DNA of 63,815 nt, counting the filler, from Intoshia linei (lineage: Eukaryota; Animalia; Orthonectida), in the NCBI GenBank assembly GCA_001642005.1. It is 4 parts of 4 records of this genome, joined end to end, with 100 filler letters (N's around TTAATTAATTAA, not from the genome) between each part and the next. Parts side by side here need not be neighbours in the genome. Positions count along the whole stretch, not along the records: positions 8,623 to 30,023 come from LWCA01000648.1; 3 more parts are not named here. One strand, given 5' to 3'. Below, piece by piece: positions 9,029-56,600 of the stretch. A program made the position numbers and the translations under genes. The stretch's first letter is position 1; each line of letters begins with the position of its first letter. Below the pieces are notes generated by a model, which was not told the origin of the DNA, did no database searches, and worked only from the letters and a program-made list of their open reading frames with translations.

Positions 9029-10999
9029 AAATATAATTTTTTGTATGCTTAATTAATATGTTTATGTATGTTTAATGTTTAATGTATGTTAAAGTATGTT
9101 TAATTGAATATTTGAGATAATTGCCAAAAACTTTATATGAATCCTTACTTACGCAAAATTACATATCTGTAAAAATGATTCGTAAATTAAAGTTGTTCTA
9201 CGGGTTTATTCTAAAATTTAAATCAAAACATTTATTAGGAAGCTATCTTAAATTTTATATTTAATTAAAAATTTTGTATCAGAAATGTAAATCTAAAGTT
9301 TACACTATAAAATAATTATAATTTAAATAAATTTTTTTTTTTATTTCTATCAACATTTCATTAAATTATGCAATATTAAAACATTTGTTTCATGGATCTT
9401 ATGCGACAAAGGTATTACTCACGAAAAAGTTATTACATATTACTGTTATCAAGTGACACATGCGTACAAAAAATATTTTCCTTCCAACCTTTCAAAAAGG
9501 GACTTGCCACTACAATGTCGCCAATCAATTAGTATAACAAAAATGATGGTAATAAATCTAACCTGTAATAATAAATATAATATATAATTGAACATAAAAA
9601 AGTTATCAATTTTGTAATCTATTAAATCAAAATTTCTAAATCTTTTGTGCTCATAAAATAAATATTTACATATGAAACGATTTAGTAGTTGTCAAAAAAA
9701 GAAGAAATTAATTAAAAATATTGATTATACATATTCAGTGTGTTATTAAAAATATTGAAAATACATTTATCATGAATACAACTTTTTGATTTACACTACA
9801 TTATAATAAAATTATAATTTTACAATTTTACAATTACAATTTTTACAATTTTAATACATCAAATATAGTTAAATCATATTAAACTTTTAAATTTTATAAT
9901 TCATAATGACTTATATGAAAGCTTTACATTGAAGAGTCAAATTTAAAATTTAAGAATAGCAAAATCAATTTGAAACAAATATGTCGATTAAAAAGCATAC
10001 TATTGAATACTTTTAATAACGTAAAACTATTGCATGTCTTTAAGTTATATTTATAGTGTTTTGAACCTGTACTTTGAACACAACAGTTTAATTCAATCAT
10101 ATATTTAGTGGATACGACTCTATACTTTGTCTTGTACCATTCAAAAAATTATTCAATATTTTGACATTTATTATAATTAATCAATATGGTGTACCTAATA
10201 ATTATAATGCATTTGGATTAAACGTAAAATATTATTGAATTATTTTATTAAAATAATACTAGACTTTGCTGGAATTGGAATTATATTTATTTTTGTATTA
10301 TAGTATATAGCCGATACATCTCTCAATATTAATTTACTGGATTAATGGAGAATAAAAAAAAGTTTTTTCACTTCATTTCAATTCTTTTTACTATTGCTAC
10401 ATATATAAATACCATCATGTTTGCCTTTGGAAAATATAATGACAGTAATCATATATAATTAATAATTTTATTCTTACGTATAATAATATATTTCCATAAT
10501 AAAAACTACAATATTTTTGAACATATCAATCAAGATTTGAATATAATATGTTTGAATTAATACAATTCTTGTTTTAAGTAATATTTCTCGGTTTGCATAT
10601 ATGTTTGTACCATTGTCAATGGTCCATTCTACTTTTAAAATGTTTTAAATGGTAAAATGTGCACAAAGCTATAGTTAAATTAAAATAATTACCATATTCG
10701 GGCATATAAATACAGTGCAGTACATTTTAATAAATAATATTTGATACAAACCGTGTATTGTTCGGTAAATAAACTATGAGTCAATGAATGTATCCAAAAA
10801 ACAATTTTTCATGCATAAAAAAACAAATTAATTATTCATAAATATGAAGTATATATTTTATATACCGTGTTTGGTCATATATGTCCCAGACATATAAGTA
10901 TCAGTAACTCATTTTTTTGTAATTGTAATTATTGATCTGTTCTATAATATTCTTATTTACTATATATAAGCAAGTAAACTGTACATTGTACGTAAATTA

Positions 11000-13349: not shown

Positions 13350-14567
13350 AATGTTACATCAACTATTATTTAATTGTTTAAATTGTATTTATATAATAAT
13401 AAATTGTTATACCGTTTTCATATTTATACCTGATTTTATAAAAAAAACATTACATTATAATTCTGAATATCTCAATTTATATAAAATTTTTTGTTGTGTT
13501 TTTTTATCGTAATTTTTTGGTATTAAGATTTTAAAGAGGATTTGAGGGATCTTTTTTATACGTATTTGAAAAAGGATTACACTTTTTTAATTTTGTTTGT
13601 TACGTCTTATTAACGAAACTAAGATGTGTAAATTTTTAAAAACACTAATTTCTAATATGATTTTTCAATAATCAAATTTCAAAAATTTAGTGAATAGTAG
13701 CATTTTTATGTAATATTTTATTTTTGGTAGAATTAGAAAAGTCCGCCCTCGGTAGAGCTATGTGTTGATTGTACGAAGTACAAAAAAGCCAAGCTAGTAA
13801 ATATATAAAATATGAATGAATATAAAAATGATATTTATACAGAATTTTTTTGCGGTCAAATAAATTTTTAATATCATAAATTTCAAAAACACACAGCTTC
13901 ATGGTGAAAACCATCAAGATACTTATTTTAAAAAATTATAAAAAACTAATAGTTCCAGAATTTAAAATAGACATTTAATACAACTTTTTCCAGTTAAAAT
14001 ATATACAGTGGCATCCGCTTATACGCTACACCGGTTATAAGGGACAAAAATCAGCTTATAGTGGACAGGCAGACACCCCCTTGAAATTATATCTACTTGC
14101 AGAATTTAAAAAAAATCATAGCTAATTTTTTTTTCAATTATCATTTAATATAAAATTTAAATCTACGATATTAGTGCCAAAATTTCTTAACTTTATCATA
14201 AAATTAATTGTAGGTGATACGTGAAATTTTTAATCAATGGAAGATAAGTGGAGAATCTGATATAAGAATAATTTAATTCTAAAAAATAATTGATTCGGTT
14301 GAGTATAAAAATTAGTATCGCAGATTAATTTGATGCAAATAATGTTTGTTAATTCACAATTAGTTAAATCCTAATTGAATAAAACAAGAAAAATATCACT
14401 TTGTCAACGGTGCAAGTGTTAATTAGTGTTATATGACTCATGCATTAATTTCTAATAAATTTCATTGGTGATAAACTGATAATATCCGTTGGATATAGTT
14501 CATAAATCAATACATATACGTTTAAAATAACGGTTTCGTATTTAAATAATCGATATATTACGTTTAT

Positions 14568-15920
14568 TTAAATGTACAAAGGTTTACGAGAAATTCTCTT
14601 GGCTCGTTCTTCTGCGATGGAAATTTTAACACCTTTTCCTCTTGGCAAGCTAACCCATGAGTTACCGTCTGTACCAATAATGAAAACATTCGATAGTCTA
14701 TTTAAATAAAATAATGTAAAATATATACATAAAAATCGTTTACCTCGTAGCAAATGTAACACCGCTAGTATCTTTCAAGTGTACAATATCAAATGATCCA
14801 GGGTGTTTTTCTCTGTTAACAACAACACCAACACGACCTATATTGTGTCCACCAGTAATGAGTGCCATTTGACCGTTTTCAAATTTAAGAAAATCCAAAG
14901 GTCTACTAGTCTCCAATTCAAACCTAATTGAATCGTGTGTTTTAACACCAGGATCAACGTAAGGAATGGTTCTACCGTCGTGAGTGATACAATACGGCAC
15001 ACCTTTATGACCAACTCCAACTTTCTTAACACGGCAAAGTTTATACTAAAAAATTAATAAAAAGTAAAATTAAATTTACCTTGGCTTCATCATTAGAAAT
15101 ACGATGCAAAGTGAATCGACCTTTTACGTCATATATTAATCGAAAATTTTCATTACATTTGTCGATTGTTAAAACGTCTAAATGTAAAAATTAGTCCAAT
15201 TTAAAAAAGTGTAGTTAAATTAATTAAAAAATCAATATAAAAATTAGTATATGGCTAGTTTGAATATTAAATAAACTAACGTCTTTGAAATGTACAAAAC
15301 AAGAAAAAATCTTAAAAAAATAAAGTGTAGATAAAGTAATTAAAAAATTAATAGAACAATTAGTATAGGACAATTTTGAACATTGAACAGATCCAACATC
15401 TTCGAAATGTACAAATTAATACATAAAAAATAAAGTGTAGTTAAATTAATTAAAAAATTAATAAAACAATTAGTATAGGACAATTTTGAACATTGAACAT
15501 ATTCAACGTCTTCGAAATGTACAAATTTTCAAATTAAATTTTTAACATTAATAATATACCCATAACTCCAACGGGAAAAGTTTTATCAGTTCTAATTTTT
15601 CCATCAATTTTAATTAACCTTCTCTTGACAATAGAAATGACTTCATTATACGTTTGAGCATACTTCAATCTGTTTCGAATTAAAATTGCTAATGGTAAGC
15701 ATTCTCTCTTTTTATGAGGTCCAGGACTAGGTTTAGGAGCCTAATTAAATTTTAAAAAATTCATATTAAAATTTTACAAATTTTCCTGATCTTTTGTCTA
15801 ACATCCATTTTTTTGGAACGTTTAGTCGTTTTAAATGTTTCTTGCAACCTCTACCCTATAAAAATCCATAATTATGAATTAGACATATTTTATTCTAAAT
15901 AAAATAAAAAAGCATACCAT
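14568..15920 (-). CDS. RPS4: 40S ribosomal protein S4 (eS4), 6 exons: 15918-15920, 15778-15855, 15560-15740, 15080-15177, 14744-15045, 14568-14697
   Basis: Spliced translation [22 protein letters not shown]...[17 protein letters not shown]...[11 protein letters not shown]...HPGSFDIVH...SLPRGKGVK; all introns GT-AG. Confidence 0.97.
15207..15295 (-). ncRNA. Intronic H/ACA snoRNA copy 3 (diverged)
   Basis: Same layout as copies 1-2 with H box ATACTA and ACA+3; substitutions in the guide pocket. Confidence 0.55.
15323..15412 (-). ncRNA. Intronic H/ACA snoRNA copy 2 (SNORA16/snR46-like guide)
   Basis: Hairpin ATGTTGGA/TTCAATGT, pocket TTCGAAG + TCAAAA, H box ATACTA, second hairpin, ACA-CTT. Confidence 0.7.
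15433..15522 (-). ncRNA. Intronic H/ACA snoRNA copy 1 (SNORA16/snR46-like guide)
   Basis: Hairpin ACGTTGAA/TTCAATGT; pocket complementary to LSU rRNA UUUUGA-UN-CUUCGA; H box 13 nt from the base of the upper stem; ACA 3 nt from the predicted end. Confidence 0.72.
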
Positions 15921-17218: not shown

Positions 17219-20200
17219 ATGGACGAAAATAATAATTTATGTTTGATCAAACCCTGTCGATACTATGATGCTGAATATTCTGAATGTAAAAGTAATATTA
17301 ATTAAAGTAAACCTAATAAGAAATGTAGCATTTAAATTTTTTAGAATAATGAAATTTAGAACCATCTTCGTAATTTACAATTAGACATGGTAGTGTTTCT
17401 CAGCCAGCTCACTCCACAATTATATAATTGGACCCATTTAAGAATTTATATAAAAAAATATTAATGACAATACTTGGATTCCCTTGGCAGTGTTTTTCCA
17501 TCTTTTTTCTATTGGGTGGACTTGGAAGCAATTAAAAACATTTGGCACACTAGTATATAACAAAATAGTAAAAGTTATATATTTGTTTGGTGCATACTGA
17601 AAATCTTTACTATAGTTTAACATTTTGCAAGGAAAAGCTACAAATTAAGAAAAAAAGTTGTTTTGATATGAAAAACTGATTAAATTGTAGAGCTCGTTTT
17701 CAATTTTTCGCTTGCCACACATAAAATGTCCTAGAGCGCACCGTTTTGAGAAACATTGTCTTAAGGGTATAGGATCTTGGTATTTCTAAATATCATTTGA
17801 TCAAATCAATAGAAAAATGTAATTATCTACAAAATGTACAAAAATTTGAATTTGCTTCTATGAATTTAAATGTACTAGTAATGGTATTCGAAAATCGATA
17901 CAAAAAATCTCAAAATTGTATTTTTCGGGTTGATTGGAATTTGTTATTTTACATTTTATTTTTGGAATTCATTTCTCGTCTTTTATTTCGCTAAAATCAT
18001 ATCATTCCCAACTTTGTCGAACTTTTACAAATTAACATAGTACATGTACTATCTTGTAACAGCTGACTTTAGTCTTATCTTTAATTATACATACATTAGT
18101 TTTGCAATAAAATAATATCAATGTCACATAAATAATTAAAAATGGAGTGAAAAATATTGCATCCAAAACAATTATGTTTTAATTTTTGTAATCAATATTC
18201 TCTTAACTAATATAATTTATTAGGCATCAACGGTAAATTTATGCATGAATACATTTATGGACAAAGAACATACAAATGTAGCATATTTTTGAATTTTTAT
18301 AAACAATGCATCAAATTTCAACAAACTAAAAACGAACAAGATGCAACAGGTATTTAAATTTGTAGAGTGATACTTTTACATCTTGTGGAAAATTTTTTTA
18401 AATTAAAAAATTAAATCATTTTTTTAAGTCAAAAAATTAAATTTGAATACTACATTGTATCACGCATTTTGTAATTATGTTTAATCTTGCAATCTTTTTT
18501 GTACATTTTGACAATTATGTATTGATAACCATCATTTATTTCTGTCTTATATTGACAGTACAGTATTGTAGTAAAAAGTAATGTTTGATTTTATTAAAAT
18601 CTAGTTATTAGTTCGAACAGTTATACATTGTGGTTAAATTTAAACGTTTTTCAATGTATTTATATTTATCCCAATTATTTGTATTTTTTTAAATCAATTT
18701 TATATCAATAATTAACGGAATCAGCACTTTAGAAACATATTTCAGATGAATTCTATAACATTGCAAAACATTGGGGGTCTTACTAAATTAATTAATTCAG
18801 TGAATTACAATGAATTACAGTAAATCTTAGTGAATCACAGTAAAAATTTTTCTGAATCAGTCATTTTGGCATTTCAGTCATTATGAAAATTTTTCTTTTA
18901 TTTTAAATTTTTTCAATATTTATCATTCAAAAATCCAATTTTCCTTTGATATTGTTCAATTTCATTACTGAATATTAATAATACTTGATAATATATTAAA
19001 AAAATTTTTTTACCCGGAATATGTAGATTTTATAGGTTAAAATTTTGTATTTATATGTATAAATCAACTGGAATAATCTGTATCAGAAAACTCTTTTTTT
19101 TTTTTTAATTGTACGACCGTTAATTATTTCAAATTTTTTGTTTTAATAAAATTGTTTCGAAATAAAAAAAAATGAATATTAAAGTGCTTTTTTGACCATG
19201 AAGGAGTCGCTTATTCAGATTGAAATTTTTTGTGTGGGTTAACAGGATACAACTGTACCATCTGTAAATTTTTTAAATTCTAGGACTGTTTTTATTTTAA
19301 AAAAAAAATGTAATCTGGGTTTTTGACCGTGAAAATTACCTTTTTTCAGGTTACTATTTATGACAATGCTTATGAACAGGGCTGTATTGAATTTCTGATG
19401 TCAGCGACGTTGGCTGGTAACAGCAACAGCGGCTGCTGTACCGGTATAGCAAGGCTGTTTTTCCAGCATAAAATTTCATATATTACATTGAATTTTAGCA
19501 GATGTAAAATGAAAATATCACTAAAACCTTGTCAACCGTTTATTGTCTATACAAGAAGCGATAAGATTTAGAAAAAAATTTCTATGAAATATACGTGAAA
19601 TTTGCTAATTAACAATTATTCATTTATAAAAAAATCATAGGTTCATTAATAAGTTTTAATTGTATGTACTTAAATTTTTTTTTAGTAAATAATATGTCGT
19701 TAATCAAATGAAAATCTAGGAATAATACGCAATTTAAAACAATTTTGGGTTTACCCCTCAAACATTAGTATAAGTAATTTTTTATTAAATTAATTCTATT
19801 TTTCAAAATGTGTCATCACTTTGTAAGTTTTTTTTCTTTGGCAGACAAAAATAAATTAAATATTAACATTATATATATTCTTCCATATATCTTATATATA
19901 AAGAATCATACAATGTTGATTCAAATGGGCTGTTTCTAACATTTGAGTGAATATTTCTGTGTTGTGAAAAACATCTTTCTATAGCCGCTTAACTGAATAC
20001 ATATATTTTAGTTTTATTTTGCATAGATTACATATTCACAATTTATTTTTTCAAAGTAATTTAACAAACATTTTGAAACTTGAACGATATATATTCACTT
20101 TAAATTAAACAGATTTATAACAAAATCAAATTCTAAAATAAACGATTTTGATTGTAAAATATTGCTGTACTTTTTGCTGCATGCAACACAGCAATGCTTT

Positions 20201-21433
20201 GTTGGAAAAATGTACAGCACTTGCTGTATGGACAGCAAAATACAACATTGCTGTTACCACCCCTGCTTATGAATTTAAAAACCATTCCAGAATTTATGTT
20301 GTATAAAATTCTAAGACTTTCTTAATTTTTAGAAAAAAGAGTAATTTGGTGTTTTGGCTGTGAAGATATAAGATTTTAAAAATTATCATAATATTGATGA
20401 ATTAAAAAAATTTATTACAATGTATATTTTTTTATAATTCTAGGACGGATTTAAATTTAAGAACAAATTATATTATATTTTATCCTTGAAGAACTTAATT
20501 TGAAGTTAAAATTTACGATAAAACGTCCCTCGAAAAACTATTATAAGAATATGGAACTTGTAAAACTTGACTCCCCTTACGTTCTTAAATAAAATTGAAC
20601 AAATAAACAGAAATACATTTTAGAACCATTTTACTTTATATAAGTAAGGATTAATTACAGAGTAAAATTGTTTATCTACATTAATGTAATTAAATTAAAT
20701 TAAAATAACATATTAATGTCAAGATTATGGTATCATAAAATATAGTGACATATAAATAATCCCTATTCGATATCTAGTCAGTAGTATAGTAGAATTTTTA
20801 AAATAGAGAGAATCGACTGTATCAGTTTTAAAGTTATAAAAATAATAATTTAATTAAATTTTCATAATTTTGATATTTTCTAATTTTTGGATTATTAAAC
20901 TCAATTGTAGTACAAATGATCCCATTGATATTGTTTGATTTAGTCTTATTAACTCAACGTGACATTATGCAGGGAAATTTCTAATAAAACTCTTTAAAAA
21001 TGGAATGTATTAGTAAATGTCCCAATGGGTTAAAATTAATTAGCAATAAGTCAACTGAAAGATGTTTTTAGAGATTAGAAATATGGCATGATTAAGTGCA
21101 TTCATTCAAACATAAACATCGCCCCAGGATATACGTACAATATCAGTCCCAGTTTACGCAATTTACTGTTTTTCACTATTATTGAATAATTATAATATTT
21201 TTGGGTTTAAATAAATATTAACCCTTCTTCAAAATCTAATCTTTCTCTGGCGTTATTAATTTTTTTAAAATTTTGTAAAAACCTTGTGCTATTTTTACTC
21301 ATTATTACAGAATAGAATACAATACAATTAATTTATTGTTAAAGATAATTTAGATTTACTAGAATTTGAAAAGAAAAACTTACAACAGAGACTGGCATCA
21401 ATCAAAAACAACAATGTATGGCAATACACATAA
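17219..21433 (+). CDS. C22orf39: UPF0545/C22orf39 (PANTS)-like protein, 3 exons: 17219-17291, 18224-18349, 21354-21433
   Basis: Phase-consistent spliced translation: KPCRYYDAEYSECKSINGKFMHEYIYGQRTYKCSIF...YKQC...DLLEFEKKNLQQRLASIKNNNVWQ. Confidence 0.75.
18990..20650 (-). mobile_element. Helitron-like repeat copy split by a hAT insertion
   Basis: Family sequence resumes after the TSD; ends TATATAAGTAAGGA|T at ~20650. Confidence 0.6.
19377..20265. mobile_element. Non-autonomous hAT element with 8-bp TSD CTTATGAA
   Basis: CAGGG...CCCTG termini; perfect TSD at 19369-19376 and 20266-20273; many subterminal ACAGC/GCTGT motifs. Confidence 0.85.
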
Positions 21434-21821
21434 GTTTACATTTTTAATACACTTGAAACATGAAACCTAATATGTTTATCCTAGGAAGACTATTAAATTA
21501 TTAAACCATTTGTAAACTGACTAATGTGGTAAATTCCATTGTAACCTTATAAAACAAAAGATTAAATTGCCATTGACTGACAAAATTAATTTCTGTGTAT
21601 TTAGCATCGTAATTTAATATTTAAAGGTCATAGAAACGTTGATTTCAATTGTTTATAAATCAACTAAAACTAAAACTCAATAAAGTCCAATGTTACATTT
21701 AAAGATCTCATTTCGCGCTTTTTTGTCAATAATTGAAAAATAATTAATAAATTAATTTGCAAATGTTAACTAATAATCTACTTACTAAAACTACATTACA
21801 CTGCTTGTAAAACTGGAACAA

Positions 21822-27146
<5,325 letters not shown>

Positions 27147-27202
27147 TTGTATATTTTATCTAATAAATGTACATTGCGTAGTTTTTATTTTATCATATAT
27201 AA

Positions 27203-28344
<1,142 letters not shown>

Positions 28345-29993: not shown

Positions 29994-30023
29994 AAAAATG
30001 TTAAAATTAATAAAAATAAAATA

Positions 30024-30123
30024 NNNNNNNNNNNNNNNNNNNNNNNNNNNNNNNNNNNNNNNNNNNNTTAATTAATTAANNNNNNNNNNNNNNNNNNNNN
30101 NNNNNNNNNNNNNNNNNNNNNNN
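30024..30123. other. Assembly gap
   Basis: N run with TTAATTAATTAA spacer. Confidence 0.97.
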
Positions 30124-31054
30124 TGTTTTTAAAATTCTTTACGCAAATGTTAACAAAAAAAATTAAGATGGAATAATGTATGTATAAAAAATACCCGTAA
30201 TTGTTATAATGTTTGTAATTAATCATAGTGTCCAACCGTTTTTTGGGAACATCAACATCTATTTTAAGAATATGAATATTTGATATATAAATTTTTTAAT
30301 GCAGTATATACACCTAGAACAAGAACCTGTAGGATGTTGACCGTGTCCACCTGGTCCATGAGTCGAGTTAAAAATAGATAAATGGAACAATTTTCATAAT
30401 AATTATATACTGATCCAGAACCTAACCTAATCCGAAGCCACCCGAAAATAAAAAAATAAACCAAAAATTTTTGGAAACAATGTGTAGTATCATATAGCCC
30501 TAGTCATCTCTCCAATAGTCTTATCATGACATTTTAAATTTGGCACACAAAATAGTTGATATTAAAGAATCTCAAGAATATATTTTTTTTAAATGTCACT
30601 TTGGAAAAATAAACTCCAATTTTACAAAAATTTCATTGAACCCGAAGAAAACCGCGGAGTACGGTAGGTTCGGATCTATACAAATTAAAAATATACGTGT
30701 ACGTGTATATGGGTACGATTTTTATATATTTTATACGTATCCAGAAATTTTCCATCGGTATAAAGCTCCAATAAGCCATACAGTCCTAGTTTACGGAATT
30801 ATCGTGTTTTCGAAGAGTAGGAGATATCATTATGCAAATTTATTATTATCAAATGTTACAGGTAGGCGAATATTTTAGTCAATGAACATTCCGGCCATAA
30901 TATACATTTTATATTATAAAAAATATTCCTAATCCGCCGTAACCGTCTTTCATTTTTATAACTTTTATTCGGTACAACTTCATGAATCATGATAATGCCC
31001 GAAATTTCTTTATAAAGCAAAAAAATATTAAACCATAAAGTCTAACGATATGAC

Positions 31055-32217: not shown

Positions 32218-38993
<6,776 letters not shown>

Positions 38994-43828: not shown

Positions 43829-44313
43829 ATGGAAACTGAACAAAAATTCGAAACCGTAGTTGATTTGATAGGGAAATCTAGCAATAAAATAAAAAGCTGC
43901 GATCAAAAGGCTGGAAGACTATACGCTAGATCTATATTTATTGGATTTCGAAGAGGACTTAGAAATCAACACGAAGCAACTTCCTTATTAAGAGTAGAAG
44001 GATGTGATAATAAAAAAGACGCAAGATATTATATCGGAAAGCATTGTTTTTATCTATATAGAGGACCAATGTATTTATATCATAATATACTGTAATTACT
44101 TTTATTAGGAGAACATTGAAAAATGGAAGAAAAACAAGAGCACGTTTGATTAAAGGAAAAATAGTCAATGCCCATGGTAATTCTGGAGTGGTTAGAGCTA
44201 GATTTAAAAAGAATTTGCCTGCTTCAGCTATGGGAAATAGAGTTCGAGTGGTATGAATATATTTATTTATCTTTTAAGTTCTGGTTTAGATGCTTTATCC
44301 TTCATTCACCTAA
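43829..44313 (+). CDS. RPL35A: 60S ribosomal protein L35a (eL33), exons 43829-44070, 44109-44250, 44290-44313
   Basis: [30 protein letters not shown]...[32 protein letters not shown]. Confidence 0.96.
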
Positions 44314-44515
44314 AATGTTTATATTTGACAATAAATGTGTTTTAAATGTGTTAATTGTACCGAAATTCAATTACCAATTTTGTATTTAATGCATTATATT
44401 GATTTTTTATTATATTCCCTTGCTGTATTTCAATAAATTTGATCATTGCTTGTGGACAATTTAATTGATGTTTTATTCGTAAATTTTCAATAATAGTTTA
44501 ATATTTCATTTTATC

Positions 44516-50613: not shown

Positions 50614-53600
50614 ATTCTAAAACACCAAAAACCATACCATTTTCCTTTGGAAACCCAAATGTATTAATTACAAAGGGGTTAATTCATTATTATAAGTAAG
50701 ATTTCAAATATATTTATATTTATACAAAATACATCAATACTTTGATTAATTTCAATATTTTAGAGATGAAAAAGATGCTGATTTATCTAAACTAGAAAAT
50801 ATTAAAACATTATGTATGATAGAAATACCTACCACATTCACAATTCATAATTTGTTATATTTTTTACGATGTGAAAAGTAATTTTTAAAAAAGATTCAAG
50901 TACTTGTTTTAAATTAATCAATGTATAGTAATCACATTGAATCTGTTACAGTTTTATCCGACAGTTTGCCTGAATCATATATGGTTCTATTAACTTTTGA
51001 AAATGTGGTAATTAAAAATTTATCCAGTATATTTTTTGTATTTTAATTGTATTTAGAAATATATGAAAAGTTTTTACAAAAAAAACAATACTCAAGATTT
51101 GAACGGTTTTATTGTTGCAAAGTGTCAATTGATTTTTATATCAAAAATTGACATTTATCGTAAATCGGATGTATAATTTTATTTTATTTTAAATTATTCC
51201 ATCAAAGATTTTTTAATGTACATTATTATTTTAAAAGATGGGTCAACTCTTTTAGAAAAGGGTGTGTTTTATGACAACGACTAATTAGTCGTTAAATTAT
51301 AATTTATTATAATTATACATTTTATTTAGGAGTCACAATCTCTATTAAATTTTGTTGAATTTCCAACCTGTCCTGTTTGTTTAGAAAAATGGGTAAAAAT
51401 TTAAGTTTTTTTTATTTATTTCAGTTTAGAAAAATGATACAATTTTACGCATAATATGTAACCACACTTTTCATTCGAATTGTTTACGTAAATGGAAAGA
51501 TTTAACGTAAGTTTGAATACTTTTTAGTTCTGTTTTCAAATTGACTTTAAATATTGTGGTGTATTTTTTGTGAATCTATCACAGGGGTGGGGAACGTGTG
51601 GCCTAATGGTCAGGTTGAGTGGCACCTAGCTCTGCCGAGGGCACATTTTTATTATACCAAAAAAATAAATTCACGTTGAAAATCTAACTTAAAAATCCTA
51701 CTATTCACTATTATCAATCCTTTAAAGGAGTGGTTCTCAAAACTTGTTTCAGGTGGGACCATCATATCACATTACTTTTTACTTTAAAGTGAATTATTCT
51801 ATCTTAATTTTTTTTTTGTTAACATTTGCGTAAAGAATTTTAAAAGCAATTGTTATCCCATTTTTTTAATTTTTAGACAGAATGTGTATATAATATAAAA
51901 AATAAAGTAAAAAAAGTCCAATCCTAAAAATTTTCATAAATAGCATATTTATTATTAATTAATACCGCATACCAAGATGTTACGCAAAGAGAAATCAATT
52001 TGGAATATTCGTTGTTTTTAATATAAAATGTCTCTCTCCTCCCTATCCTCTTACTACCCTCACTGTCTCCCTTTCGCCCATTTCTGTGGTCGGAATCTGT
52101 TTGTCTATTTATGTCCTTCAATATCCAGTATTTTCATTTGTTTGAAAAATTTGAAAGGTAAGTGATTTGAACCGAGTACTTCTCTAGATTATAGTCTGTC
52201 ATAGTAGTCACTACAAAATCGTCATCGCAAAACTTATTTTTTTTTATATAATGAAATTTTATCAATATATATTTAGATATTTTAATTTTTGTGTTTAAGT
52301 GTTAAACTAATTATTTAATTGAAAAATTGATTAAATATCATAATCATGAACTTCATTTTATACTTTCTCATCTGTCAACCTTAAATGTTAGAAGCAGATT
52401 AATTCAATTTAAATATAAAATTTACAAACACCAGTATGACATTATAAGTCAAACTATTTACCACATATATGAAAATAAGGTATAATTATCTGAAAAACGG
52501 TGTTTACACCATAAAATGTTTTTATTTTGTAATATTAGTTGGTTCTGCAGTTTTTCAGTCTTAACTTTGGTACCACATTGATCTTGAATCGATTTAAAAT
52601 TTAAATGAATATAAAAAAGACAATTAAACAGGACACGATACATTTAAATATATAAAAAACAAATTTAGTTAATTTTTTTAATTCTATTACTATTAACATA
52701 TAATACAATAGAGTCAGATTCAATTCAACAAAATAATCGAAATCATTCCAACGAACAATTACGTAAGTTTCGGTTTAATATACCATCTCAAACGGCTTTT
52801 TTCTTGTTTTTTGGTTATTATCGAAATCCTTTTTTAATTTTACTGTCACCTAAACACCATAATATAAACAATAAATGAATACACACATATAACAATATTT
52901 AATTTTTTAGTATTTGCATTAGCATCTGAAATCATTTTTTCTATATACGGCGTCGTTTCACCTTCGTGGTTATCCNTCAATTCAACAAAATAATCGAAAT
53001 CATTCCAACGAACAATTACGTAAGTTTCGGTTTAATATACCATCTCAAACGGCTTTTTTCTTGTTTTTTGGTTATTATCGAAATCCTTTTTTAATTTTAC
53101 TGTCACCTAAACACCATAATATAAACAATAAATGAATACACACATATAACAATATTTAATTTTTTAGTATTTGCATTAGCATCTGAAATCATTTTTTCTA
53201 TATACGGGGTCGTTTCACCTTCGTGGTTATCCACTATATCAATATGACTAAGAACGTTTTAGTATGTCCACTAGAATGTATATACGAATTAAAGCCAGGA
53301 GTATTCATAAATAATGAAAATGGAGTTTTATTTGTGGCACGATAAAGTTATATTGTACTTCCGTACAACTCCAACCAAAATATCGATCCAACATTTGCCT
53401 CCTTGTAACGTTTTTGCTAACCATCTTTTTATGGTTTGGTTTGCTCTAAAATAATATGAGAAAAAATAAAGTATAATAAACCTCTCTATCTGTCCTTGTG
53501 ATTGGGGATGCCGAGGTCTGCCATGTATTATTCCAACTTTCATTTGATTGCATGTCTATTATTTCTGAATTTTTAAATTCCCTCCCGTTATCTGTATGCA

Positions 53601-56600
53601 GTGTTTTTGGAGGTCCAATTATCGAAAACAGTTTTTCAAATTTGGATCTCAGGTTCACAGCACTTTTGTTTTTTAATTTCGTTACCCACATATACTTCGA
53701 ATAGCAATCAATTACATTCAAAATATACTTGTAGCCCCGATTTTCCCCCTCATATTCCAATAGACTTATGCAATCTGCCATATATCTTTCCCTTGGTTTC
53801 ATTGTTATTATTGGCTTAATTCTTGAACTGTGACCAAATTCATACTCATTTGACAGAAATTACAATTTTTGATAACCTGTTATGAAACATTTTACATAAA
53901 CCATAATTTAATGGAAACCTCCGCAATATCACATCTTTTAATGTTATATGATATATTGTCGATATGCTCCTTTGTCTAAGTATAAATTGATACAATTAAA
54001 TTCGTATTGCAACCTTAATAACTCCACAATGACCAATTTTATGAAAATTATTGATGAATTCATACTTTTTTTCCATCTCATTATCAGAAAATACTATCAA
54101 TTTCTCACCATCTATGCATAGTATATTGAAATACATGTTAAAATACCTTTTAAAAAAACAATTCACATTTACAACTGTAAAATAAACCGTCTTTTCTTTT
54201 AAACGTTTTTCAGCTTGTCTACTTTTACACTCACAGTTTCCGTCCGTAATTAAATTAATTTTATCTTGAAACGTTTTGAAAGAAAATTTGCACACCATTG
54301 AGTGATATTGTGAAATGTTAATTAAATGTGATCAAATAAATAAATGTTTTGGTATTTATTGTTGTCACAATAGAAACATGATATGTAACATCTTGGTATA
54401 CGACAATTAATTTAATTATTTAACATGTTTGTTGATGTAGTTTAAGTTGATTTATTTGAAACAAAATGTTTTGAAAATGAGAATTTAAAAATTGCGTAGC
54501 AATGAAAAAAAATTCCGAAGGAATCAATTATATAAATTTTCACTTATATTTCTTTATTGGAAATGTGTAGACGTTCAATGCAAATTTTTTTTTGAAATTG
54601 TAGGATTAATATTTACATTTTAAATTTTTATTAATTATTATTAATCGAAGTATTTAAAAAATATTGGTTGATAATATATTAAAAGTTATTTTTCACTGGG
54701 AATATGTAGATTTCTGGGTTTAAAACTGTTTATTTACAAAAACTGGAATACTTATCAGCATAATTTAAAATGATGGGTAATTTGTGGTTTTAGCCGTGAA
54801 GATGAGGTTTTTGAAATTGAAATTTATCATAATTTTTTTTATTTTAAAATATATATCAGAGTGTATATTTTTTATGAATTCTAGGATTTGTTTTATTTTT
54901 TAAAAAGGATAATTTTTGGGTTTTTAACTCTGAAGGACTAAATTTACGAAAATGAAATTGACAAAAAACTGTATTATAAATAGGTGTTTTTAAAAATTTA
55001 CACTTCTTATGTTCTTAAATAAATGGTAACAAACAGATAGACATGTATGTTTATAGTTAAATCCTAAACTTACTTAAAATTTAATATCTGTGTGTGTTAC
55101 CGTTTATTTAAAAAATTAAATGTGTAGAATTTCACAAAATTTAATATCTAAGACATATTTTTGCGGATAATGTTTTATCTAACTTTTATTTCACGAATTT
55201 GAGTTATTCAAGGTCAAAACCCAATTTCCCCTTTTTTTAAAAATAAAATCAGTCCAAAAATTTAAAATAACATTTAAAAATTCTGGGACGCGTTTTAAAA
55301 TCATTAACATTTTCTTAAATCTCGGCCTCGGAAACGCACACCTTCATGGTCAAAACCAAAATTATCCTTTGTTTTAAAAATAAAAATTTTATAAAACATA
55401 CATTCTAGAATACTCATTTTAAAATCATAATCATTATCATAAATTACAACCTATAAAAATTTCAAAAAAGTGGATTTTCACGATCAAAAGCTCAGATTAC
55501 TTTTTTTATAAAAAATGACAATAGTCCTATAATTTAAAAATAAATACGGCTTATACAGTTATCTTCAATTAACACACACAAAAGATTTTAATCTCACAAA
55601 GTAGTGCCTGCACGGTAAAAAAGCCATTTCGTGGATTTTTTTTATTTGTTAACTATTTTATTAAAACAAAAAATTTGAAATAATTACTTGTGCTAGAATT
55701 TAAAAAAGATTTCCTCTTATACAGCTTATTCTAGTTTATTATTATTATACTGCTATTATTTTATTTGATCATTTTAATTTTTTTATTCTAAAACTATATT
55801 TAGGTGTCCTATTTGTAGATACAGTCAACTGCCTAATACTACAACAAAAAATTGCTGTTCTGGTTGCGGAGTAATTCAGAATTTGTGGATTTGCTTAGTA
55901 TGCGGAGATATTGGTTGTGGTAGATATTTGGATGGTCACGCTTCAAAGTAAATATTTTAATAAACACGTAAATTATTATTCACTGATGATTATCAGTCTA
56001 TCACCTTGACAGTTGTAAGGTCTTATGTCACCTTGTATGAAAATCTTTTAAAATTTACAAATTTAAAATGAAACGCAAAATTTTTAGTTCATTCTAATAA
56101 TATATTTCCTATCTGATGGGCCACTTTCGATAAATACGATGACGAGAACTTGAAATTTGAAAAAAAATTGTTTATTTTATGGTAAAAAAGGTAAAAACAT
56201 TTTCAAATTATATTACCATTCTGACCCATCTAATATCACAATAAAAATCAATTCAACTTCATGTTATCCCCTTTATGGACCTCTTATGGATGAAGTGAAT
56301 AGTATGTGATCAAAATATTTTCCTATTCGATCACATGTAACATTCTATAACCACTAGTTTACGGCACATTAAATTTCATCTTTACAACTGAAAAGGTCTA
56401 TTACTATTATCCATTATTTTGCTAATTTCATTAAAATAAAAATATTATTATATTTACAATATTAATATAAATAATAAAATATAATTTAGACATTATGAAT
56501 TGACAAAGCATACATATGCCATGAATATAAATACTGACGAAGTTTGGGATTATTCTGGAGACAATTTTGTTCATAGATTGATTCAAAATAAAAAAGATGG

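Follow-up and report, generated by a model that had tools for sequence, protein, structure and literature searches.

An intron of the ribosomal protein gene RPS4 of Intoshia linei, a highly reduced orthonectid parasite, carries a tandem array of three short units (copies A, B, and C), and copies A and B are predicted to be guide genes for the uridine equivalent to yeast U2865 in large subunit (LSU) rRNA, a reading that we hold with a probability of about 0.88. The array is a real feature of the sequence, and it very likely consists of genes for H/ACA guides of a conserved pseudouridine. It was analyzed within a window of 63,815 nt, in which four parts of the genome assembly are joined by filler letters, and all positions count along this window (Table 1). 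Tandem Repeats Finder (TRF) reported a repeat of period 110 with 2.9 copies and 84% matches at 15206-15527. Together with exon identity and splice joints, this repeat confirms what a preliminary description had proposed, namely three tandem units on the host sense strand within one RPS4 intron.

Table 1. Coordinates of the RPS4 host gene, the three predicted H/ACA units, and the U14-like pair in the window.
Feature	Position	Strand	Evidence
RPS4 (eS4) host gene	14570..15920	-	exon identity, Pfam S4e, splice joints
RPS4 host intron, 382 nt, GT..AG	15178..15559	-	splice joint 15177-15560 in contigs
Copy A, predicted two-hairpin H/ACA guide, 91 nt	15433..15523	-	boxes, pocket, fold
Copy A pocket strands	15515-15510 and 15489-15484	-	
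Copy A upper stem	15509-15490	-	
Copy A H box	15476-15471	-	
Copy A mini 3' hairpin	15470-15439	-	
Copy A ACA	15438-15436	-	
Copy B, predicted guide, 91 nt	15323..15413	-	pocket and boxes as in copy A
Copy B H box	15366-15361	-	
Copy B ACA	15328-15326	-	
Copy C, 90 nt	15207..15296	-	boxes intact
Copy C H box	15250-15245	-	
Copy C ACA	15212-15210	-	
Two tandem U14-like box C/D RNAs, 73 and 72 nt (box C to D)	29993-29921 and 29909-29838	-	

The identity of the host gene is well supported. On the minus strand, the exon 14743-15045 has 100% identity to P0001, a protein of Intoshia linei named 40S ribosomal protein S4 that has S4e Pfam families, and the next-best protein match shows 67% identity. 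The joint across the host intron was found in contigs of runs X2 and X5 in a first set of four runs and of X3, X4, and X5 in a second set of four, these runs belonging to two studies, P1 and P2. Runs X7 and X10 do not have the joint because their contigs stop short of crossing the intron. None of these runs is registered as RNA, and we infer from the spliced joints that these RPS4 contigs are cDNA-like. Since they skip 15178-15559 entirely, the whole array lies in a single spliced intron on the sense strand of RPS4, as an intronic snoRNA should, with 36 nt between the donor and the start of copy A and 29 nt between the end of copy C and the intron end. The spliced introns of the gene measure 37, 382, 34, and 46 nt, and the small ones are spliced in the same contigs; the length of the host intron against the 34-46 nt of the others supports the guide reading. 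The median intron of I. linei is 57 bp (PMC6543705, in excerpt). An ATG exon at 15920-15918 with a 62-nt intron is predicted from the sequence, where ATG followed by GT is read at 15920-15916, and that exon is absent from the spliced contigs.

Several other joints and contigs were observed at this gene. In a spliced X5 contig, the RPS4 exon-2 acceptor 15855 was joined to the upstream same-strand donor 17473, and in X2 it was joined to a 29-nt end that matches 27224-27252, a stretch within the final coding exon of a gene that we take to be PDE6D-like. These joins may reflect read-through or chimeric splicing, or assembly paths. In addition, a spliced RPS4 contig of X10 over 14553-15178, intron not included, had 20 differences in 546 nt (~96% identity), and it derives from another population or another species of the genus. 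DNA support for the three copies comes from X1 only, in contigs at 14550-15384 and 15355-15494 that have no differences and span the C-B and B-A junctions; X1 is not independent evidence, as the window may derive from it, and 15495-15519 lie outside the X1 pieces listed. The spliced runs matched the copies only through 39-nt pieces of unrelated contigs, which are uninformative on expression.

The three units share one architecture. Each runs from UGUACA to three nucleotides past ACA, in the order 5' strand of the lower stem, pocket UUCGAAG, upper stem (8 bp with a 4-nt loop), pocket UCAAAA, and 3' strand of the lower stem, followed by the H box AUACUA, a stretch of 32 nt that can fold as a hairpin, ACA, and CUU. 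The small 3' hairpin is AU-rich and has a UUUU loop. The spacers between the units (19 nt for A-B and 26 nt for B-C) are U-rich and have no evident stem. The H box is invariant in all three copies and fits the class consensus ANANNA after the first hairpin (PMC7277114, in excerpt). ACA plus CUU is likewise invariant in 3/3, always 32 nt past the H box, and conservation drops beyond it, where the 3' end is predicted. From the upper stem to the H box there are 13 nt in every copy, which puts the first A of the box at position 14; the excerpted sources give the distance from pocket top to box as about 14 nt (PMC5778458) or about 15 nt (PMC7277114). Thus, the boxes (ATACTA, and ACA plus 3 nt) and the unit size of about 90 nt given in the preliminary description were both recovered, the units being 91, 91, and 90 nt long.

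Copies A and B differ at six positions, none of which is in the pocket, the lower stem, or the boxes; two of the six fall in the upper stem, and both are wobble changes that keep the pairs. Their pocket strands are as given above, whereas copy C has UUCAAAG/UCAAAC, one altered base per strand, and is also changed at three positions of the 3' strand of the lower stem. Variable columns made up 18/91 of the core against 14/19 and 12/19 of the two flanks (ungapped, three copies), and the Fisher p values of 1e-5 and 2e-4 for the flanks are overstated because the comparison is ungapped, with limits placed by eye and indels scored as differences. Conservation apparently stops at the predicted unit ends. 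A covariance model of the three copies found no fourth copy in the window, the next match reaching 20.5 bits (E 0.15). A candidate at 14541-14580 that overlaps the RPS4 stop (70% over 40 nt) was unsupported by this model and was rejected.

The pocket has a predicted target in LSU rRNA. In reference eukaryotic LSU rRNAs, rather than that of Intoshia, the A/B pocket forms 6 + 6 Watson-Crick pairs with the two arms of UUUUGA-UN-CUUCGA, a bipartite pairing above the class threshold of at least 8 pairs flanking the unpaired UN (PMC7277114, in excerpt). The pocket of copy C forms 5 + 3 contiguous pairs at U2865 of the same references. The LSU loci were taken from metagenome contigs and found by motifs flanking the site, with the site itself unused; the 14-letter target was perfect in 99/104 eukaryotic LSU loci among the matches listed. 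Rfam identified locus L006, the one locus that its confirmation covers, as LSU_rRNA_eukarya with 371.7 bits, the same consensus, and the target U at model position 2874. In the register that assigns this U to yeast position 2865, 14/14 listed yeast modification sites fell on the right base in 23/27 long loci, against at most 8 sites for alternative offsets of 1-6. U2865 was the top site for the A/B pocket in 6/6 LSU references (6 shown of 27), and no bipartite site for this pocket was found in 6/6 small subunit (SSU) references (6 shown of 10; contaminant contigs). Pseudouridine 2865 of yeast lies in the peptidyl-transferase centre, is guided by snR46, and is conserved in human (PMC8307265); the human counterpart is ACA16/U4412 (PMC3542256, in excerpt). 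Both the complementarity and the assignment to the snR46/SNORA16 pseudouridine, as first put forward, therefore agree with the predicted pairing to reference rRNAs.

For copy C, the altered pocket was confirmed on both strands, and it had been attributed to either decay or retargeting. A retargeted copy C was not supported, as no bipartite site was better than U2865 in the 6 LSU and 6 SSU references shown, and a one-sided 6-pair match to an SSU site had zero pairs on the other side. Judging from these pairings, decay seems more likely than retargeting. An extra SNORA16 copy was retargeted by a point mutation in Xenopus (PMC6984369, in excerpt), which is a precedent, by analogy, for what copy C could do.

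Folding gave a less uniform picture of the hairpin-hinge-hairpin-tail fold, with two stable hairpins, that is expected of the class. Compared with shuffles, whole-unit folding had z scores of -1.73 (A), +1.14 (B), and -1.18 (C), and copy B folded no better than shuffles. The upper stem of copy A alone beat 199/200 shuffles, and its 3' hairpin, a stretch picked by eye, beat 200/200. The energy of the 3' hairpin was -4.7 kcal/mol in A, -2.5 in C, and 0.0 in B, where no fold formed. Thus, the second hairpin is reduced, as first described, but not strictly AU-only, since copy A has one G-C pair, and it is unfolded in B. The lower stem of the first hairpin has just 3 bp plus one, and it is broken in copy C. 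The guide conformation of the first hairpin had -5.8 (A) and -2.8 (B) kcal/mol against minima of -8.4 and -8.0, a difference of 2.6 and 5.2 kcal/mol. Selection of the guide fold over the minimum-energy fold would thus fall to proteins and substrate. Pairing with the target contributes about -2.9 and -6.4 kcal/mol for the two arms. The RNAalifold consensus, in which the 5' end pairs with the 3' pocket strand, was rejected as the guide fold, its pocket being 22 nt from the H box, and is kept as a possible alternative conformer.

Covariation adds little to the fold. The upper-stem changes C-G to U-G and A-U to G-U are present, as had been claimed, and so is the mismatch (C.A) in copy C. However, the compensatory change from G-C to A-U holds less firmly than first described, because it depends on where a one-base gap is placed in copy C and requires that the gap be set in the loop. 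In the MAFFT alignment, 89% of cells pair and 0/22 pairs change on both sides.

Chance matches were estimated at two levels of stringency. A loose scan asked for a pocket forming at least 12 pairs around any one of 1173 rRNA uridines, a simple stem, and a box at 13-16; it gave 14 matches in the real window, and the shuffled windows had about 16 apiece (40/40). Twelve pairs were reached by 98/3000 shuffles of the whole intron and by 16/6000 shuffles of the 110-nt unit. A lone 12-pair pocket is common by chance in the AT-rich DNA of the window. The strict filters, chosen with knowledge of the copies, further required that the upper stem fold, that a lower stem and an ACA downstream be present, and that the target lie in a conserved context. 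In the real window they were passed by copies A and B only, while shuffled windows gave 0.89, 0.47, and 0.20 matches each under successive filters (150 shuffles); at the last level, 30/150 shuffled windows had one match and 0/150 had two. Our own estimate of the strict chance is ~0.02 per window (0.20 x at most about 45/456), where 45 is our count of yeast pseudouridine sites (PMC8307265) and 456 is the number of conserved-context uridines, and the figure was set before the sense-strand position in a ribosomal-protein intron was counted. A search of the whole window for further mini H/ACA guides gave two candidates, at 10341-10392 (+) and 5896-5828 (-), with 11 pairs, a level easily reached by shuffles.

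Rfam did not recognize the array. No family reached its gathering threshold in the array region, E-value scans of the region gave only chance bacterial sRNA or miRNA matches, and the snR46 and SNORA16 models had no match, whether at the gathering threshold or with E values up to 10. Within 15190-15545, a search that allowed E values up to 10 matched a single family, TB11Cs5H3 (RF01544), a trypanosomatid H/ACA guide, with 13.4 bits against a threshold of 50 and E 4.6. Its consensus has the same pocket letters as copy A and, in register with it, a comparable ACA/UGU lower stem; however, TB11Cs5H3 is a single hairpin that ends in AGA, whereas the copies have AUA and then a conserved 38-nt extension to ACA, which together with the low score places them outside the trypanosomatid single-hairpin AGA class. 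The literature search found no paper that names TB11Cs5H3 or confirms its target. This match is suggestive only.

Four other explanations were weighed against discrete guide RNAs. The working RNA could be a single hairpin of ~53-56 nt ending after the AUA of the H box, with the rest a duplicated spacer, by analogy with trypanosomatid and archaeal guides. The best Rfam alignment does cover the complete 65-position trypanosomatid single-hairpin model, over 15523-15474, and the second hairpin is tiny, unfolded in B, and far under the human loop-to-ACA distance. That alignment, however, is far under threshold, and conservation over the 38 nt past the H box matches that of hairpin 1 (5/38 variable columns in the 3' hairpin and ACA against 13/53 in the hairpin 1 part). 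A fixed 32-nt spacing to an invariant ACA and the advantage of the copy A 3' hairpin over shuffles also speak for a second hairpin, and eukaryotic RNPs perform best with both hairpins (PMC5778458, in excerpt). We consider a single-hairpin RNA improbable. It is also conceivable that the array is an ordinary tandem duplication of AT-rich intron DNA and that the rRNA match is coincidental, given how often shuffled windows yield loose 12-pair pockets, an overall folding that is not significant, and the lack of an Rfam family. But such a coincidence would have to hit a pseudouridine conserved between yeast and human, with an H box at the proper distance, in the sense orientation of an intron in a ribosomal-protein gene, and at the only locus that passes the strict scan (chance about 0.02 per window), which makes it quite implausible.

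The remaining two explanations accept a real guide. The copies might be silent relics, with the active guide, if any, elsewhere in the genome: damage in copy C affects the lower stem and both strands of the pocket, the 3' hairpin of B has lost its stability, and the copy search spanned this window only. Against this, A and B are identical in pocket, lower stem, H box, and ACA despite the six differences elsewhere, and a compact genome still retains a 382-nt intron; the relic reading has little probability. More weight, though still well short of even, goes to guides for the same uridine that are left uncut, as one multi-hairpin RNP of ~200 nt (A+B) or ~317 nt (A+B+C), trimmed by exonucleases to its outer ends only, like a very short sno-lncRNA. 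The short U-rich spacers without an evident stem fit such a form, fusion would let the weak 3' hairpin of copy B be tolerated, and mammalian two-snoRNA introns can give snoRNA-ended composite RNAs (PMC11028025, in excerpt). On the other hand, every copy has kept its own ACA plus CUU and 5' end, and intronic H/ACA clusters are usual in Drosophila (PMC3089462, in excerpt).

In the preferred reading, that of H/ACA guides, the array would be transcribed together with RPS4, dyskerin, Nop10, Nhp2, and Gar1 would be loaded on the copies, and the RNA would be released from the excised intron, as in the known H/ACA pathway. Intronic H/ACA clusters of Drosophila give separate RNAs. With three units in one intron, a composite RNA would result unless the spacers are cleaved. 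The copies would be parted by cleavage within these U-rich spacers of 19 and 26 nt, together with exonucleolytic trimming, and the A and B RNAs would pseudouridylate I. linei 28S rRNA at the U2865 equivalent. The 32-nt 3' hairpin, which has no pocket, may act as a stability and ACA-anchoring element only, and copy C is probably a decaying duplicate. The whole statement, guides for this uridine that are made as separate products of ~91 nt with a vestigial second hairpin, seems to us somewhat more probable than its negation. The odds are about even that orthonectids shrank the two-hairpin H/ACA RNA to ~90 nt and release it from arrays spaced 19-26 nt apart, giving a natural minimal animal H/ACA RNP whose 3' half is asymmetric or partly empty.

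The small size is what sets these units apart. The distance from terminal loop to box is 21 nt in the 5' hairpin and 13 nt in the 3' hairpin, compared with 24-28 nt in human H/ACA RNAs, for which an excerpted source proposes this length as a recognition hallmark and reports that off-size hairpins impair accumulation (PMC5207380). H/ACA lengths are commonly quoted as 120-160 nt (PMC2656528, in excerpt), and the shortest fungal H/ACA RNA is 115 nt (PMC5824354, in excerpt). The loop-to-box distances of 21 and 13 nt and the length of 90-91 nt are thus below norms that are typical rather than defining. A U lies ten bases above the pocket top in all three copies, a position noted for yeast (PMC5207380, in excerpt), and this is weak evidence in a U-rich RNA. 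The literature search found no table of minimum H/ACA lengths for animals, so 91 nt is not a demonstrated record. Guides of similarly small size may exist in protists, for example in Giardia. Among the papers listed in a search of the non-subscription literature, no prior account of an Intoshia or other orthonectid snoRNA turned up. What is novel is the miniature 3' hairpin and the tight packing, the function and the intronic clustering being already known. The 3' hairpin is about half the length thought to be needed by the human dyskerin-Nop10-Nhp2 ruler, and how copies 19-26 nt apart get separated is a question that the array raises. If the 91-nt RNA accumulates, it would be a natural test of what purpose the second hairpin serves and of whether that hairpin must bind the complete set of proteins, and compact pseudouridylation guides could be modelled on it. 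Since snoRNAs of orthonectids escape detection at Rfam thresholds, it is likely that the snoRNA set of this group is unannotated, not lost.

Clustered H/ACA units of Drosophila are of ordinary size, whereas those of Intoshia are ~90 nt with spacers of 19-26 nt. The presence of several H/ACA genes per host intron is common to both (PMC3089462, in excerpt), so three copies in one intron are less unusual than the preliminary description had held. Animals mostly have one snoRNA per intron (PMC11028025, in excerpt), and H/ACA clustering within introns also occurs in Plasmodium and plants (PMC2656528, in excerpt). The predicted target of copies A and B is shared with yeast snR46 and human ACA16 (SNORA16), and also with Entamoeba ACA-Eh-LSU3008 and Plasmodium Pfa ACA 41, which are grouped with snR46/ACA16. 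The array is thus a functional counterpart of snR46/SNORA16 that is not filed in those Rfam families. Vertebrate SNORA16 resides in the non-coding SNHG12 (PMC6984369, in excerpt), whereas the Intoshia copies are in RPS4. One off-size hairpin is also found in human AluACA RNAs and the telomerase H/ACA domain; there the aberrant hairpin is the 5' one, and the 3' hairpin compensates through its GC-closed BIO motif (PMC5207380, in excerpt), whereas in Intoshia the 3' hairpin is short and the 5' hairpin bears the guide pocket.

A second snoRNA array in the window consists of the U14-like pair upstream of the terminal Hsp70 exon 29719-29471. Rfam SNORD14 matched the first unit with 18.1 bits (E 0.38, cut-off 64) over box C, both antisense regions, and box D, and the second copy is changed in box C and the 3' antisense region. 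The Hsp70 intron is deduced for the pair because a run of N near 30000-30130 cuts off the upstream exons. U14 is known from introns of Hsp70-family genes. Tandem, shortened, sub-threshold snoRNAs thus occur twice in the window, which strengthens the H/ACA reading. An X5 contig has a variant U14-like copy.

Other features of the window were noted. The RPL35a gene at 43829-44320 (+) has introns of about 40-50 nt by eye, which leave no room for a snoRNA. A tyrosine kinase gene at 17291-27284 (+), presumably Abl-like and with Pfam PK_Tyr, has tiny introns (36-40 nt) and long ones (932-3004 nt), the long ones with dispersed repeats. A 257-bp direct duplication with 99% identity (52720-53232 and 53449-53859) adjoins an integrase-core fragment (Pfam rve) and is likely a transposon remnant or an assembly duplication. 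Finally, a tRNA gene at 38585-38666 (+) has the anticodon UAG and a long variable arm, and so it is read as tRNA-Leu.
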